From NCBI GenBank assembly GCA_016181175.1, contig JACOZV010000002.1, positions 64,115-128,114 on the forward strand: DNA of 64,000 nucleotides. The letters are read 5' to 3'. How positions within the stretch are numbered: position 1 is the first letter of the stretch; each line of letters opens with the position of its first letter. The notes under the pieces are model-generated. The model was not told the origin of the DNA, ran no database searches, and saw only the letters and a program-made list of their open reading frames with translations. Source of the stretch: Candidatus Yanofskybacteria bacterium (GTDB lineage Bacteria; Patescibacteriota; Minisyncoccia; 2-02-FULL-40-12; IGHO2-01-FULL-4-A). The position numbers and the translations under genes were made by a program. Positions 18,943-57,271 of this stretch are shown in pieces.

Positions 18943-19004
18943 GATTTTGGTCGAATTAAAACAGATTATATATAGTCTATTTGAACAAAATACAAATTAT
19001 GAAT

Positions 19005-19114
19005 CCCGTTAGAAACAGCCCTAGCGGGTTCATAAAGATAAAGTATATTTTTAACAAGCCAGTACGGTAAAATATAAGCCAAACTTATGTTTTACTGTTA
19101 CTGTCTCTAACGGG
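19005..19114. mobile_element. MITE-like element, copy 2 (110 bp; TSD ATGAA)
   Basis: Ends cccgttagaaacag / ctgtctctaacggg. The interior is related to copy 4 (shared agccctaNcgggttcat and aaaacttatgt blocks). Flanks are ATGAA(t) and ATGAA. The right end abuts the ATG of the DUF1059 ORF. Confidence 0.7.
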
Positions 19115-19312
19115 ATGAAAACTTTAACATGCAAGGATTTAGATCCTACTTTGGCTTGTGATTATAAAGCCACGGGTATGGATGAAACAGAGGTCATGCA
19201 AAACATGATGACTCATGCCAGAGAAGCTCACGCCGACAAAGTCGGCGGCCTGACAGATGAGCAAATGACTGATATGATGACGCCGCACATCAAAGATGAA
19301 GCTGCGATGTAA
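19115..19312 (+). CDS. DUF1059-family small protein
   Basis: MKTLTCKDLDPTLACDYKATGMDETEVMQNMMTHAREAHA matches the MKxFxCxD...C DUF1059 pattern. Confidence 0.65.
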   Translation: MKTLTCKDLDPTLACDYKATGMDETEVMQNMMTHAREAHADKVGGLTDEQMTDMMTPHIKDEAAM

Positions 19313-35911: not shown

Positions 35912-35977
35912 CCTAATCCCCAATTTGTCAAAGTTCTTTGTTGCAACAAGGATAAATAAAATATGTTTAACCGTCAA

Positions 35978-36048
35978 CCCCGTTAGAAGTCTCACTCGTG
36001 CCGAAAGCACGAGTCTGTTTGACCTCGGCGAGGCTACTTCTAACGGGG
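35978..36048. mobile_element. MITE-like element, copy 3 (short, 71 bp; TSD TCAA)
   Basis: Perfect 13-bp TIR ccccgttagaagt / acttctaacgggg. Internal hairpin ctcactcgtgc-cgaaa-gcacgagtc. Flanked by TCAA on both sides. Lies inside the Bat-like operon between the DUF58 gene and the next gene. Confidence 0.7.
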
Positions 36049-36087
36049 TCAATCCTTCTCAAATTAAAAAGTCGAGGTAAACCTCGA

Positions 36088-40376: not shown

Positions 40377-40441
40377 ATCCCCATAAATAACTATCTAAAA
40401 ATACGTTTGAAAAATACCAAGAAATATAGTAATGTGTCAAT

Positions 40442-40550
40442 CCCGTTAGAAGTAGCCCTAACGGGTTCATGAACCAAAGTTGATGCTTAATAATACTAGT
40501 GCAGTGACCATAAGTAAAACTTATGTGTTGCCGTTACTACTTCTAACGGG
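40442..40550. mobile_element. MITE-like element, copy 4 (109 bp; TSD TCAA(T/G))
   Basis: Ends cccgttagaagtagcc / ctacttctaacggg. Interior related to copy 2. Flanks TCAAT and TCAAG. Divergent intergenic region. Confidence 0.7.
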
Positions 40551-40656
40551 ATCAAGGTGGATCCCGAACGAAACAGCCTTTGCTGACAATAAAATAGGGT
40601 TACAGTGGCTATCTAAACGGGGATTAATAAACCCGACTTGTTAATAAGGCACGGAA

Positions 40657-42033: not shown

Positions 42034-42316
42034 AAACGGCCCAGTTTTGACACAAAGTCTCTGCTGAACCGCTGCGTGTTGTATTATGTTGCCGGGACGC
42101 ACTTACACGCCGTAGCGCCCTCCGCTTCGGGGTTTTTCTCCCCAGGGTTTCCGCCTCCCCTTCATCATAAACCTGGCATGGCCAACAACCTTTCTTTGTC
42201 TCGTTATGGTCACGGCGTGACCATAACGGCCTCCTAATTAAGAACAATGTTTCGCTAGGCCGGAAACTTTCAGCCTATACGTATATTATACTCCTAAACA
42301 AATAAAAAGTCAAGGT

Positions 42317-42344
42317 TTGCATATGAATGGTACGATGCTATACT
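42317..42344 (+). promoter_or_regulatory. sigma-70-type promoter (TTGCAT-16-TATACT)
   Basis: Upstream of the holin-like gene. Short or leaderless 5' UTR. Confidence 0.45.
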
Positions 42345-52843: not shown

Positions 52844-53183
52844 TAACTAAATCATTATACGGTAATCTCCTAGATTTGTAAATAGCCATGCCATCAAATT
52901 TTTTATTTTTTGTTCCTGGAAATATAAGCGAGCTATAGTGCCTTTTGTAAATCAGCCAAGCGAAACCCCTGTCTAAGAAATCATTCATGGCAGGCTTTGG
53001 TAACAAATAAGGCGAGCGAGCAGCGGAAAGCCGAGACCGCAAACCCGTAAGCCCGGCCCTAAAGCGGGGTTAGTTTGCGCTTGCGCAAACTAAGGTTGAG
53101 GAAAGCTCGGAAGGATTCCGCGTTGCGAGCGAGTTATATTTGTCAAAGCCGAATGTTGATTTCGTGATAGGGGTTGAGCGGGA

Positions 53184-54044: not shown

Positions 54045-54097
54045 GTATTTTATATTGCTTACTCCTCAGGGCAAGTCCTTTGTTTTTCGTCATTCAT

Positions 54098-54210
54098 CCC
54101 GTTAGAAGTCGCTGCTATGCAGCTTTGCACACAAATTACAATTTACACAACAAAACTTTAAATTATTTGCTAGCTACGACCGCGAACCCGTCAGGGCGAC
54201 TTCTAACGGG
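54098..54210. mobile_element. MITE-like element, copy 5 (113 bp; same subfamily as copy 1)
   Basis: Perfect 15-bp TIR cccgttagaagtcgc (54098-54112) / gcgacttctaacggg (54196-54210). Interior ~70% identical to copy 1. TTCAT immediately to the left. It encodes the last 12 codons of the upstream 428-aa ORF. Confidence 0.75.
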
Positions 54211-55460
54211 ATAAATCCTTCTATTATATTTTTTTCTACCAACTCCTCAATCTTATCACGTCCTAGATATTCAATGAAAATTTTATTCCATAAAGCCTCC
54301 TGCTGGTGATAAAGATATTTTATCTCGCCTTTTTTGACCAATGACATCACCAAATCTATCAAGTCAAAACTTATCAATTCCTCATCTGTTTTACCACTAA
54401 TACCATCAGAAAAAAAGTCACCAACAAAATCTAATCCCTGCCAATAGCCAAATGCTTTGCCCCCAGCACCAAGAAATGTGCCAATTTTACCCAAATCTCC
54501 TTCGGCTTTATACCAATGTTCCGCTTCAGGGTTAAAATGCGGCTCCAAAAGACGAAAGTCATTTGGGTCATCTTTTGCCAGATATCTTTGCACTATTCGC
54601 AAACTATTTTCGTTCGGTAATGGCGCCTCACTTACATCACCGCGCAAAAGCGATTTTAATTTAATGGTAAAATCGGCCTCGCTGGAAAATTTCCTGAATA
54701 ATTTAGAATAAAATGGCACTTCGTTTAAATAGTGAAGAATAAGAGTGAAAAGTCTTAAGGTTTCACCGGGAGTATCAATTTTGAGTGGTATTACAAAAAT
54801 AATCCCCAATTCTTTGAGATGGCTAACGTTGTGATATTTTTTCTCCAGAAATTTTTCGGCAACATCTAACCATTGCGGCTCAAGGACCCTCAATTCCACT
54901 TCACGTTCTTCAAAATCACCGGCAGTTAATTCATTATATGCTTCATCAAAAAACTTATGCATCCAAGCCTCATCTTGAGCAAAACGGAGCGCGCTAAAAA
55001 CCTGCTCAAAACCCTGTTTCTTAACTAATTCAGCAACAGTCCCATAACCAAAATGGTTAAGAAGATTTTGCGGCGTAAACTTTTCGAGCATCTGGATTGC
55101 TTTTTCTTTTTTAATGAAGAACCCGGGTTTCGGCTTGTTGAGAGCAAAAGCTGTTTCGCAAATTTTTGCACAAACCAACGCGGTTTTTGAAAGATCTGGT
55201 TTACCCAAAAAATTATACAAGTGTTCATCCATGTGGGTTAGCCGTTTGATAAGAATATTATAAACATCCCCAGTACTGCATGAACCCAACGATAATCCCA
55301 ATTCTTCCAATGTTCTCCTGGTTAAAATCGTATTTTCCTCGGCTATTCGTTCCATAACACCACTTTTACCAGTCAGTTTATTCATCTTTTGCTCCAAATC
55401 TAAAAGCACCTCCGGTGGGGTACGTAATATGCGAGCAAGTTTTGTATGGACTTCTGACAT
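54174..55460 (-). CDS. hypothetical protein (428 aa)
   Basis: Long ORF with no recognisable motif. The C-terminal ...PLEVALTGSRS* is translated from MITE copy 5. Confidence 0.55.
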   Translation of the reverse strand: MSEVHTKLARILRTPPEVLLDLEQKMNKLTGKSGVMERIAEENTILTRRTLEELGLSLGSCSTGDVYNILIKRLTHMDEHLYNFLGKPDLSKTALVCAKICETAFALNKPKPGFFIKKEKAIQMLEKFTPQNLLNHFGYGTVAELVKKQGFEQVFSALRFAQDEAWMHKFFDEAYNELTAGDFEEREVELRVLEPQWLDVAEKFLEKKYHNVSHLKELGIIFVIPLKIDTPGETLRLFTLILHYLNEVPFYSKLFRKFSSEADFTIKLKSLLRGDVSEAPLPNENSLRIVQRYLAKDDPNDFRLLEPHFNPEAEHWYKAEGDLGKIGTFLGAGGKAFGYWQGLDFVGDFFSDGISGKTDEELISFDLIDLVMSLVKKGEIKYLYHQQEALWNKIFIEYLGRDKIEELVEKNIIEGFIPLEVALTGSRS

Positions 55461-55513
55461 GTGTTAATAATTCTTATTTTTCAACGTTTTTTTAGCATTT
55501 TTACTTTTAAAAC

Positions 55514-55543
55514 TTGACAAACACAAGGCAACTTTGCTATACT
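55514..55543 (+). promoter_or_regulatory. near-consensus sigma-70 promoter (TTGACA-18-TATACT)
   Basis: The -35 TTGACA is at 55514-19 and the -10 TATACT at 55538-43. The promoter points away from the 54174-55460 gene start into a non-coding GC-enriched segment. Confidence 0.6.
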
Positions 55544-55549
55544 TAAGGT

Positions 55550-56035
55550 AAGGCTTAGAGATGAAGAGGTGAGGTTGTGGGATAACCCTCAACCGACACC
55601 ATACTTTCGGTGTCACGTTAATTTCCCTCTGTCTATCTTTACACGTGTCTCCGGGCAGTAGGGATTTGAAACCGATCTCCATTTCTAAGCCCGGCTCTTT
55701 TACCAAATCTGCGAACACCGCCCCTACATTCCCGCCTTTGTTGCGGTGATCCAAGTAAGTCATTCGGGGAGGTTCGCATCAAGCTGGCAGTAGCTCATTT
55801 GGAAGTTTAAGTGTTGGGTGCACCCGATACTGCAGTTACTTTCAAGTAAAGTGCTGCCTGCAAGTTTCGGAGACCGATCCGGCGGGTTCTCGATTGTAAG
55901 GGCAACAGCTACCGGACGATCTTTGGGAAGCCCCGTTCCAGAGAAACCGACATAGAGGGGTGTTAAAACGGTCCTTGTCAGTTCCGCCTAGAGAACTGGC
56001 CGTAGCCTGGGGTAACGCACCCCAGGCTTTTTTAT
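55550..56035 (+). ncRNA. candidate ~480-nt structured non-coding RNA (identity unresolved)
   Basis: Promoter upstream and an intrinsic terminator (cctggggtaacgcaccccagg + TTTTTTATTTT) at the 3' end. Visibly higher GC than the flanks. Multiple internal hairpins (for example gacacc-atactttc-ggtgtc). The only ORF >=60 aa on either strand is a 99-aa minus-strand frame (55464-55763), judged non-coding (see rejected list). Flanked by minus-strand genes. Confidence 0.45.
56007..56035 (+). terminator. intrinsic terminator
   Basis: cctggggtaacgcaccccagg is an 8-bp GC stem plus TTTTTTATTTT. Confidence 0.8.
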
Positions 56036-56287
56036 TTTAAAAAATTCTCTTCCAATTATTATTCCCAAGGCCCAAGGCCGTTTCTTTTAAATATCATAAA
56101 CTTGTTTCAAATTACTAGAAGCCGATACCAATCAGCAATTTTTATCACTTTTATAATTGCTAAGGAGAGGATGTTATTTACCGGCGTAGGCGGACACTTT
56201 TTGTGAAAAATCCCAGCAGGGTGGATTGAACAAAAAGAGTCCGCGTAGCCGGTAGGTAAAGTGTCTTACTACATCCTTGAAACGAAT

Positions 56288-57271
56288 TTATGATATTTTT
56301 ATTTCAACCAACGGCCATGGGCCCCAATCATCTTTTTTAAGAATCCCCTCTTTGCTCCCCACTTTCGTAACAACCGATGACGAATTGGCCGTAGCAAACT
56401 GCATCGCCTTTTTGATGTCCCCGCTTCGCATATATTCTGCCACAAACCCAGAATTAAAAGCATCCCCCGCCCCCGTGCGTTCAACAACCGGCGAATCAGG
56501 CACTCCCGCACTATATGTAACACTACTTTTAAATACTTTGGAACCGTTATGTCCATCAGTCAGTATAATCATGCCGCAACAGGTCTTGGCCAACCTATTA
56601 AATGTTTCCGTTATATCATCGGGATTTGTGCCAACCAGTTGTGCGCCTTCTTCTTTATTGACTGCAAAAATATCAATATGTTTCAAAAACGGTTCTAATT
56701 TTTCAAAACCATGTTCTAGTTCTTTACCGCCAGGATTACAAGCAATTTTAATTTTATTTTTGACAGCATGATTAACTAAAGCACCAAAGAGGTCATAATG
56801 CCCGCCCAAAGAATCAATATAAAACCAGTCTGCCCTGAGCCTACTAAAGGGTATTTCCTTAACATTAAAATGCTGGCCCTCGCCTTTGTAACTTAGTATG
56901 GTGCGTTCTGCGTCAGGGTGGACAAGTATTGTTGAATAAGCGGTAAAACCATCGGCATGTTTTTGAAAAATTGGCCCAACTTTTTCTTTTTTTAATTCAG
57001 TCAAAATTTCCTCTCCTGCCATGTCGTTGCCTACAACGCCAACACAGGCAGTTTTTAATCCCTGTCTTCCAAAGGTAACCGCGGCATTAGTCCCGCCACC
57101 GCCAGTAGTAAAAATAATTTCTTTTACTTCGAGTTTGGAACCAAGCGAAAAACATTGTTCAACGCCAGTTGGAGAATCGGCATGTTTCCTCACCTCAACA
57201 TTTTCCATTTTCAGGAAAACATCGCGTGTGGCCGAACCTACCACTACAACATTATATTTAGAATTAAACAT
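56288..57271 (-). CDS. PfkB-family carbohydrate kinase (ribokinase-like)
   Basis: N-terminal GG dipeptide region TTGGGGTNAAV. C-terminal TGAGDAFNSGF anion hole. Confidence 0.8.
   Translation of the reverse strand: MFNSKYNVVVVGSATRDVFLKMENVEVRKHADSPTGVEQCFSLGSKLEVKEIIFTTGGGGTNAAVTFGRQGLKTACVGVVGNDMAGEEILTELKKEKVGPIFQKHADGFTAYSTILVHPDAERTILSYKGEGQHFNVKEIPFSRLRADWFYIDSLGGHYDLFGALVNHAVKNKIKIACNPGGKELEHGFEKLEPFLKHIDIFAVNKEEGAQLVGTNPDDITETFNRLAKTCCGMIILTDGHNGSKVFKSSVTYSAGVPDSPVVERTGAGDAFNSGFVAEYMRSGDIKKAMQFATANSSSVVTKVGSKEGILKKDDWGPWPLVEIKIS

Follow-up and report, generated by a model that had tools for sequence, protein, structure and literature searches.

A candidate family of modular structured RNAs at the pfkB junction of Yanofskybacteria genomes

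Introduction

Between two minus-strand protein genes in a Candidatus Yanofskybacteria genome (Parcubacteria, candidate phyla radiation (CPR)) lies a plus-strand unit, 55,514-56,038, whose orientation is opposite to that of both neighbors, and the question raised by this locus is whether the unit is a gene and, if so, what kind of molecule it makes. The window analyzed here is a 64-kb stretch of that genome, to which all coordinates refer unless a related locus is named. An initial annotation of the unit had described a near-consensus promoter, an intrinsic terminator, GC enrichment, many local hairpins and no coding open reading frame (ORF), and had proposed a large structured non-coding RNA, either novel or a divergent housekeeping RNA. 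The comparison with related genomes leads us to favor, at a probability of about 0.6, a novel, lineage-restricted and modular family of structured non-coding RNAs that would act in trans.

Results

A transcription unit with predicted start and end signals

The elements of the unit, in 5′ to 3′ order, are:

55514-55543, + strand: promoter, -35 TTGACA (55514-55519) and -10 TATACT (55538-55543) separated by 18 nt of which the last three are TGC, with the TG of an extended -10 at 55535-55536
55550-56038, + strand: predicted transcript of ~485 nt, its start placed ~7 nt after the -10 element and its end in the terminator T-run
55552-55563, + strand: 5′ strand of helix P1 (GGCTTAGAGATG), 12 of 12 pairs with 55680-55691
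55564-55679, + strand: variable module inside P1, 116 nt, three hairpins by single-sequence folding, not tRNA-like
55680-55691, + strand: 3′ strand of helix P1 (CATTTCTAAGCC), pairing with 55552-55563
55692-55701, + strand: linker cggCTCTTTT, directly 3′ of P1
55711-55777, + strand: conserved junction core (covariance model R1, 61.1 bits, E ~1e-11 to 1e-10)
55711-55716 with 55772-55777, + strand: helix Pa (from RNAalifold and pair counts)
55721-55724 with 55766-55769, + strand: helix Pb (from RNAalifold and pair counts)
55732-55735 with 55743-55746, + strand: hairpin Pc (from pair counts)
55752-55764, + strand: near-invariant strand CAAGTAAGTCATT, whose columns are invariant or nearly so in the core alignment
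55778-56003, + strand: 3′ variable domain of ~225 nt, GC-rich and multi-hairpin, unique to the window genome among the sequences sampled
56004-56038, + strand: intrinsic terminator, a 10-bp stem (seven G-C pairs) at 56004-56028 with a 5-nt loop, then TTTTTTATTTT

The promoter matches the sigma-70 consensus at 11 of 12 positions, includes the extended -10 TG, and is the best promoter-like site within 54-58 kb. Inside the unit the GC content of 200-nt windows is 0.495-0.52, against 0.36-0.40 in the flanks, and the whole + strand folds with a minimum free energy of -188.6 kcal/mol (z = -4.96), which none of 100 shuffled sequences equaled; the - strand has a folding z-score of -3.35. Taken separately, the P1 domain (55552-55696) reaches z = -4.73 and the 3′ domain (55787-56003) z = -3.13. 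The placement between the two genes, both transcription signals, the GC enrichment and the abundance of hairpins described in the initial annotation were all reproduced.

Generic scans for promoters and terminators are not enriched over shuffled sequence (6 promoters found vs 9.0 expected, and 4 terminators vs 4.4), so the real support for these signals is that they recur at equal relative positions in every homologue. Each homologous unit is preceded by a TTGACA-N17/18-TG(C/A)TATA(C/A)T promoter, near-identical between units down to parts of the spacer (TTGACAatgcctaggc.att.TGCTATACTTAA), and each closes with a GC hairpin followed by TTTT(T)ATTTT. We conclude that 55,550-56,038 (+) is a predicted stand-alone non-coding RNA gene, clearly set off by a strong sigma-70 promoter and an intrinsic terminator of its own.

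Compensatory changes in a conserved core

Related loci were taken from the DNA around relatives of one of the two flanking proteins, a conserved hypothetical of 428 aa, and carry L-numbers (L001 is GCA_016185545.1). Seven of them hold a syntenic homologue of what we call type A: L001, L003, L007, L008, L012, L098 and L100. The type A core spans 80-115 nt and comprises helix Pa (CGAACC/GGUUCG), helix Pb (GCCCC/GGGGC), hairpin Pc, a near-invariant 13-nt strand (ACUCAAGUAAGUCAUUC), a second hairpin Pd and then AAAA. The helices Pa, Pb, Pc and Pd together present the near-invariant strand CAAGUAAGUCAUU, of which L098 carries the variant CAAAATAAG; in the window, CAAGTAAGTCATT may form a CAAGUA hexaloop on a short, modeled stem of 3-4 bp. 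The window copy has all of the features that define type A (promoter TTGACA-N17/18-TGnTAnAnT, P1, ccgCUCUUUU, a Pa/Pb/Pc core with CAAGUAAGUYAUU, and terminator) except Pd.

RNAalifold, run on a plain MAFFT alignment of the seven cores, predicts Pa, Pb and Pd, with compensatory changes in 7 of 17 pairs. Covariance model R1, built without L100, hits nothing outside the family when run on the window and on 683 kb of related loci, and recovers the held-out L100 at 83.4 bits (E = 1.6e-16). Across eight sequences, 88.8% of cells in the core helices are paired, against 78.3 ± 1.9 in shuffles, with 18 double-change cells against 7.7 and a covariation score of 0.304 against 0.140, values that were reached in 0 of 500 shuffles in each case; as a control, sliding the 3′ partners by 1-3 columns lowers pairing to 27-45%. 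The changes can be followed in single helices: all five pairs of Pd show compensation, a C-G pair of Pb becomes U-A in L001, and the outer pair of Pa alternates between A-U and G-C among members. Such compensatory changes point to selection on the pairing itself. Pa, Pb and Pc also contain G-U pairs, which would be A-C mismatches on the opposite strand, so the functional strand is the + strand, the same one that the promoter and terminator define.

The complement of the near-invariant strand, AATGACTTACTTG, occurs four times in the window with at most two mismatches (2.0 expected), and the only perfect match is its own site, so that no trans target emerged from this search. The k-mers CAAG, GTAAG and CAAGT are the most enriched across 13 units (42 vs 25.8 expected, z ~3.5), much of which comes from shared ancestry and GNRA-type loops, and the idea of a repeated-motif protein sponge is for this reason suggestive only. 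The Pd loop is CAAGU in three members, repeating the CAAGUA of the invariant strand, and this repeat together with the enriched CAAG, GUAAG and CAAGU leans, weakly, toward recognition by a protein.

Two exchangeable domains in a fixed chassis

P1, which in the window is formed by GGCUUAGAGAUG and CAUUUCUAAGCC (12/12 paired), is present in 14 units with lengths of 5-16 bp, and its sequences differ between units in a way that keeps them complementary. It is fully paired in 12 of the 14, and the other two have one mismatch or bulge (8/9 and 9/12 pairs). A leader of 7-10 nt precedes it, and its base is usually GCUGG/CCAGC, above which the pairs vary yet remain complementary. Of the 14 units tabulated, nine have the linker (c)cgCUCUUUU after P1 and the others have U-rich variants of it; the linker looks like the 3′ side of the terminators of the unit itself.

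The sequence enclosed by P1 ranges from 46 to ~250 nt and cannot be aligned between members; for the window insert, nhmmer finds no homology to the inserts of other members. In three relatives belonging to two types the insert is tRNA-shaped. ARAGORN calls the L100 insert (2599-2688) a 90-nt tRNA-Gly(tcc) whose anticodon arm is enlarged and the L010 insert (337-408) a tRNA-??? with a 6-nt anticodon loop, and the L008 insert scores 24.1 bits with the Rfam tRNA model, for which 29 is the gathering score. All three have an acceptor stem that runs on into P1 to give 10-12 bp, so that these modules are closed cloverleaves inside P1, with no free CCA end and no G3-U70 pair. Neither ARAGORN nor Rfam calls a tRNA in the window unit (55,5xx-56,0xx). 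The 3′ domains, of 110-300 nt, are likewise unalignable between most members, and that of the window has no homologue in the related loci by nhmmer and no blastn match in phage and plasmid collections.

Comparison of the units thus resolves a fixed chassis, consisting of the predicted promoter, a short leader, P1, the linker ccgCUCUUUU, the type A core and the terminator, and two slots, the P1 insert and the 3′ domain, whose predicted structures are evidently replaced wholesale between lineages. Judged from the same comparison, selection clearly appears to maintain the promoter, P1, the linker, the core helices, the one 13-nt strand and the terminator.

Types and distribution

Across the family the RNA units measure ~350-590 nt, and not all of them have the type A core. 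Type B, which has the chassis without that core, is represented by L010 and by an additional copy in L003:

L003 13262-13580, + strand: type B unit between ychF and a DUF5671 gene, in the genome that also holds a type A unit

Two paralogous types can thus coexist in a genome, each at its own site. Type C is represented by L095, whose 3′ domain is homologous to that of L001, and L018 has a further form that shares the chassis and lacks the core. At the same junction, the more distant relatives L047, L048, L055, L058, L060, L061 and L057/L059 have one to three GC-rich promoter-to-terminator units, several of which show a recognizable P1 and a CUCUU(U/A)U linker.

A strict core pattern, which the variant of L098 would escape, was matched seven times in 241 million metagenome records; two matches are true and duplicate L008 and L012, and the other five are chance matches in unrelated GC-rich DNA. 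Viral contigs contained no match to a promoter/P1 pattern or to a linker/core pattern, and blastn found no match in phage and plasmid collections. By these searches the type A core is rare and apparently confined to a small subclade of Yanofskybacteria, ultra-small bacteria of groundwater, with the looser chassis of promoter, P1 and linker spread more widely.

Relationship to described RNAs

In gathering mode, the 4,227 families of Rfam 15 match only five tRNAs in the whole window and nothing in 40 related loci. At E ≤ 10, the 951 nt of 55350-56300 give nothing in the RNA body, and the chance matches outside it (GP20-a, SAM-II and BsrG) are each far under the gathering score; L012 470-880 (411 nt) has no match at this threshold, and E-value mode on seven related loci returned tRNAs and chance matches only. 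The models for OLE, GOLLD, ROOL, raiA, HEARO, 6S RNA and signal recognition particle (SRP) RNA do not match the RNA region in gathering mode or at E ≤ 10. ARAGORN calls no transfer-messenger RNA (tmRNA) in the window or the related loci, and the Rfam tmRNA model does not match in the region. The RNase P models find nothing at gathering threshold in the whole window or at E ≤ 10 in 55350-56300 and L012, and neither P4 nor CR-I (GAGGAAAGUCC) nor CR-V was present. BLAST against Escherichia coli rnpB gives short identities in relatives only, of 14 nt in L012 (to positions 187-200) and 13 of 14 nt in L001 (to 175-188), as well as a 10-nt match in L008 that falls in the tRNA-like D-arm; since the covariance models are negative, we treat these as chance or as a shared local motif. 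In the literature on non-coding RNAs of CPR bacteria (Patescibacteria) and on tRNA-like RNAs we found no description of the family.

Genomic setting and neighboring elements

The genes on either side of the unit are:

54174-55460, - strand: conserved hypothetical protein, 428 aa
56288-57271, - strand: PfkB-family kinase

The wider neighborhood is of a housekeeping kind, with genes for class-II fructose-bisphosphate aldolase (fba), ribulose-phosphate epimerase (rpe), RpiB, YchF, a Mur ligase, tryptophanyl- and tyrosyl-tRNA synthetases, RNase J and superoxide dismutase, and no reverse transcriptase, transposase, integrase or defense gene was found in it. The RNA gene occupies the junction between pfkB and the 428-aa gene within a sugar-phosphate cluster whose order in the relatives (rpe, pfkB, 428-aa gene, fba) is conserved. 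This junction measures 2-150 nt in most genomes and is widened to 0.7-1.1 kb in a subset of the closest relatives, where it holds an RNA unit on the opposite strand.

The 428-aa protein, encoded in a pentose-phosphate/glycolysis cluster, shares 100% identity with one annotated from Candidatus Yanofskybacteria and has more than 2,400 relatives. It is very highly conserved across Parcubacteria, where many of its His, Glu and Asp residues are invariant. Neither Pfam nor NCBIfam matches it, its uL30-like sequence matches are weak (E = 0.05 at best), and its confident AlphaFold model (pLDDT 88.7, pTM 0.90) has no PDB match by Foldseek. Its deposited annotation begins 25 codons downstream (403 aa). 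As a candidate partner of the RNA we rejected it, as no feature suggests an RNA link and it is widespread without the RNA.

Several loci contain extra RNA-like units of ~100-130 nt upstream of the main RNA, with a TTGACA...TAnACT promoter and a terminator of their own, which begin at or overlap the start codon of the 428-aa gene:

L003 9999-9860, - strand: extra small unit
L018 ~3000-2830, - strand: extra small unit
L100 ~2925-2790, - strand: extra small unit
L094 113-1, - strand: extra small unit

In L001, the stretch 9975-9761 (-) between the 428-aa gene and the main RNA holds another tRNA-like element, its closed acceptor stem 11 bp long, followed by a small promoter-to-terminator unit. At its 5′ end (9820-9805) that unit is perfectly complementary, over 16 nt, to the anticodon arm of the tRNA-like element (9932-9917). 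We flag the junction of pfkB and the 428-aa gene in Yanofskybacteria as a place where several more small RNA genes may lie unannotated. L001 also has, ~4 kb away from its RNA, at 13781-15140, a diversity-generating retroelement pair (bAvd and an RVT_1 reverse transcriptase), which was not found near the RNA in the window or in other loci.

On the 3′ side of the window unit, a weaker terminator-like hairpin (56065-56089, +) lies 30 nt past the main terminator and reads GGCC-CAA-GGCC, then GTTTCTTTTA; L007, L010 and L100 have the equivalent hairpin ACGGCC...GGCCGTTTT after their RNAs. An element resembling a miniature inverted-repeat transposable element (MITE) occupies 56089-56298, directly 3′ of the RNA terminator. 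Its 22-nt terminal inverted repeats (TIRs), AAATATCATAAACTTGTTTCAA and TTGAAACGAATTTATGATATTT, are 91% complementary and enclose a long internal hairpin (56174-56259), its right end overlaps the pfkB stop codon, and similar sequence also lies 3′ of the RNA in L007 and L100.

Elsewhere in the window we noted an interspersed repeat family of ~130 nt, built around CCCGTTAGAAGT...CCCTAACGGG palindromes, with five intergenic copies in both orientations, one of them between fba and the 428-aa gene:

715-843, both strands represented among the copies: repeat copy
18995-19125, likewise: repeat copy
35959-36059, likewise: repeat copy
40422-40555, likewise: repeat copy
54093-54222, likewise: repeat copy

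Two other GC-rich non-coding stretches, 52940-53180 and 42034-42326, may be further unannotated RNAs. Neither has an Rfam match above threshold (the only signal is whalefall-1 at 53049-53103, 24.4 bits against a gathering score of 37), and neither nhmmer nor model R1 detects them as relatives of the RNA family.

Discussion

Several observations weigh against the reading of a trans-acting RNA family. Equally close relatives (L005, L017, L097 and L101-L106) lack the RNA at the syntenic site and within ±3-10 kb, and its absence there from several close relatives suggests that the gene is dispensable. No partner gene that co-varies with the RNA was found, and the 428-aa protein occurs in thousands of genomes that lack the RNA. 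Only eight type A sequences are available, the alignment used for the pair counts was fitted to the model, and Pc is mis-registered in half of the alignment rows. The core (55700-55790) is thermodynamically ordinary (folding z = -0.85). Of all members the window copy is the weakest, with a score of 61.1 bits, no counterpart of the Pd hairpin that all other type A members have, and A-G/G-A mismatches at the inner end of each of the helices Pa and Pb; it could be partly degenerate. Its P1 insert and 3′ domain, which have no homologues, were modeled by single-sequence folding, and both ends of the transcript are predicted from promoter geometry and the terminator.

The alternative that survives best, which we consider possible but on balance unlikely, is that the unit is a processed precursor. 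It would consist of small RNA units fused together, from which a short 5′ piece with the P1 module and another piece with the core and 3′ domain would be released. Cleavage at P1 and the linker would be the work of RNase III where P1 is a stem of 10-16 bp, or of RNase P or Z where the insert is tRNA-shaped; the U-rich linker would alternatively cause partial termination. The 3′ strand of P1 taken with the linker (AAGCCCGGCTCTTTTA) shares 75-81% identity with the terminator of the unit and with a second terminator-like site, but with 2-4 nt between P1 and the U-run, and only four U residues, it would make a poor terminator. Pc, too, looks like a terminator hairpin without its U-run. A history of fusion would fit the distant relatives that have two or three tandem promoter-to-terminator units at the junction, and the extra small units beside the main one in L001, L003, L018 and L100. 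tRNA-shaped elements are natural substrates of RNase P and Z, and the tRNA-shaped inserts would suit both enzymes. However, all eight type A members conserve both P1 and the core, which suggests one working unit. Processing and a trans-acting particle can also coexist.

Could the unit instead be selfish or decaying DNA, left behind without a function by some mobile or duplicated element linked to tRNAs, in an intergenic hot spot where MITEs gather too? The patchy occurrence among close relatives, the splitting of an otherwise tight junction between pfkB and the 428-aa gene, the MITE-like element with 22-nt TIRs directly downstream (56089-56298), the other interspersed repeats of the window and the loss of Pd from the window copy are all compatible with this. 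Yet promoter, P1, linker, core and terminator are kept across genomes in which the flanking protein is just 70-80% identical, a distance at which unconstrained DNA would not align, and the compensatory changes show selection on pairing. We also rejected a MITE or insertion sequence as the identity of the unit itself: no TIRs or direct repeats flank 55,514-56,038, and it is a single copy in the 64 kb, with none elsewhere in the 683 kb of related loci. With no transposase, integrase or reverse transcriptase nearby and no copy in viral contigs, we regard this explanation as improbable.

A divergent housekeeping RNA (RNase P RNA, tmRNA, 6S or SRP RNA) beyond the reach of the Rfam models is very improbable. 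The size, GC enrichment and strong promoter are compatible with it, some members have tRNA-like domains as tmRNA does, and the rnpB identities of L012 and L001 could be read in the same sense, but neither the 951 nt of the window nor the 411 nt of L012 matched any of these families at E ≤ 10, ARAGORN found no tmRNA, and the modules lack the free CCA end and G3-U70. Nor would a housekeeping RNA be expected to be missing at its site from close relatives, to occur as two paralogous types in one genome (L003) or to have whole domains swapped. Of the initial annotation's proposal, the non-coding RNA and its novelty therefore stand and the housekeeping branch falls, along with the loose resemblances to RNase P RNA, which the covariance models do not support.

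A coding or cis-regulatory role is hardly credible: an ATG-started minus-strand frame of 99 aa does exist (55464-55763), named by the initial annotation as what might prove to be a conserved protein, but it starts at the reverse complement of a conserved CAT in the core, its ATG is kept in three of seven homologues and is ATA in L008, L012, L003 and L098, a stop closes the frame after 13-72 codons in homologues, the frame has no Pfam match, and no ORF of at least 40 aa is shared among homologues on either strand; a riboswitch or cis-acting leader was rejected because the genes on both sides lie on the opposite strand, leaving no downstream + strand gene, and a strong terminator ends the unit; and although the unit is convergent with pfkB, an antisense regulator of that gene would have to read through both this terminator and the second terminator-like hairpin at ~56065-56089.

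We return, then, to the reading of a trans-acting RNA family and to how its members might work. Our tentative picture, which we hold at less than even odds, is of an RNA that would act in trans as a stable folded particle, in which the conserved core and linker would form the binding surface for a partner, most likely a protein, and P1 would be a clamp that displays an exchangeable module. Where the module is tRNA-shaped, it might engage or decoy the tRNA-handling machinery, by analogy with GOLLD RNAs that carry tRNAs in their variable linker. A bolder version, distinctly speculative and in our view rather doubtful, is a cassette RNA whose conserved chassis carries interchangeable modules, tRNA mimics among them, as an RNA-level platform for display or decoy. 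Its modules would be swapped by recombination between lineages, it would engage tRNA-handling enzymes, ribosomes, or phage or host nucleases in these ultra-small symbiotic bacteria, and it might, like ROOL and GOLLD, build higher-order RNA particles.

Among described RNAs, the ornate RNAs GOLLD and ROOL are the closest analogy, although covariance models exclude membership, with no match to the Rfam model of either. In GOLLD one half is conserved and the other varies, and tRNAs are sometimes found in its linker (PMC12286853). The units described here are similarly large, GC-rich and multi-domain, form their own transcription unit without a known protein partner, and join a conserved part to a poorly conserved one, and the tRNAs in the GOLLD linker recall the tRNA-shaped P1 inserts of L100, L008 and L010. 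They differ in being shorter (~350-590 nt vs ~600-800+), in their chromosomal, housekeeping setting, away from prophages, tRNA arrays and viral contigs, and in having the tRNA-like module clamped by an extended acceptor stem.

Mimicry of tRNA inside non-tRNA transcripts is established, and Y RNA and YrlA, which associate with Rsr/Ro, are likewise modular, with a closing stem that carries a tRNA-mimicking module. The new family is much larger, however, and matches neither the Rfam Y_RNA nor the YrlA model; its modules keep four arms and it is the acceptor rather than the anticodon side that enters the closing stem; and the neighborhood has no rsr gene, with the window copy lacking the tRNA-like module altogether. 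With tmRNA, some members share a tRNA-like element joined to a long structured body, and the size and strong promoter are similar, but here the tRNA-like part is a contiguous closed cloverleaf rather than one built from the 5′ and 3′ ends, and a CCA end, a G3-U70 pair and a tag ORF are absent, in line with the negative ARAGORN and Rfam results. RNase P RNA is comparable in size and GC richness and shares the short S-domain identities with two relatives; unlike it, the new family has no P4, CR-I or CR-V and no model match, and is patchy, domain-swapping and apparently dispensable. In the 3′ETS-leuZ sponge RNA and in MALAT1-mascRNA, one transcript joins a tRNA or tRNA-like element to a functional segment that is not a tRNA, a precedent that favors the processed-precursor alternative. 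Those elements are real or cleavable and have free ends, whereas the ones described here are enclosed by P1 and are replaced by unrelated hairpins in most members, the window copy included.

We therefore rate this as a new family among the large orphan structured non-coding RNAs of bacteria, in which the cassette-like architecture is the unusual feature. Its narrow distribution, the small number of sequences and the predicted nature of the transcript set limits to its interest. CPR bacteria make up a large share of bacterial diversity, and to our knowledge almost nothing is known about their non-coding RNAs. For this group the locus offers a concrete, bounded and testable new class of RNA, with a defined core and an exchange of whole structured domains, and if the tRNA-like and other variable modules are functional, it would take its place beside GOLLD and ROOL among the large RNAs tied to tRNA biology.

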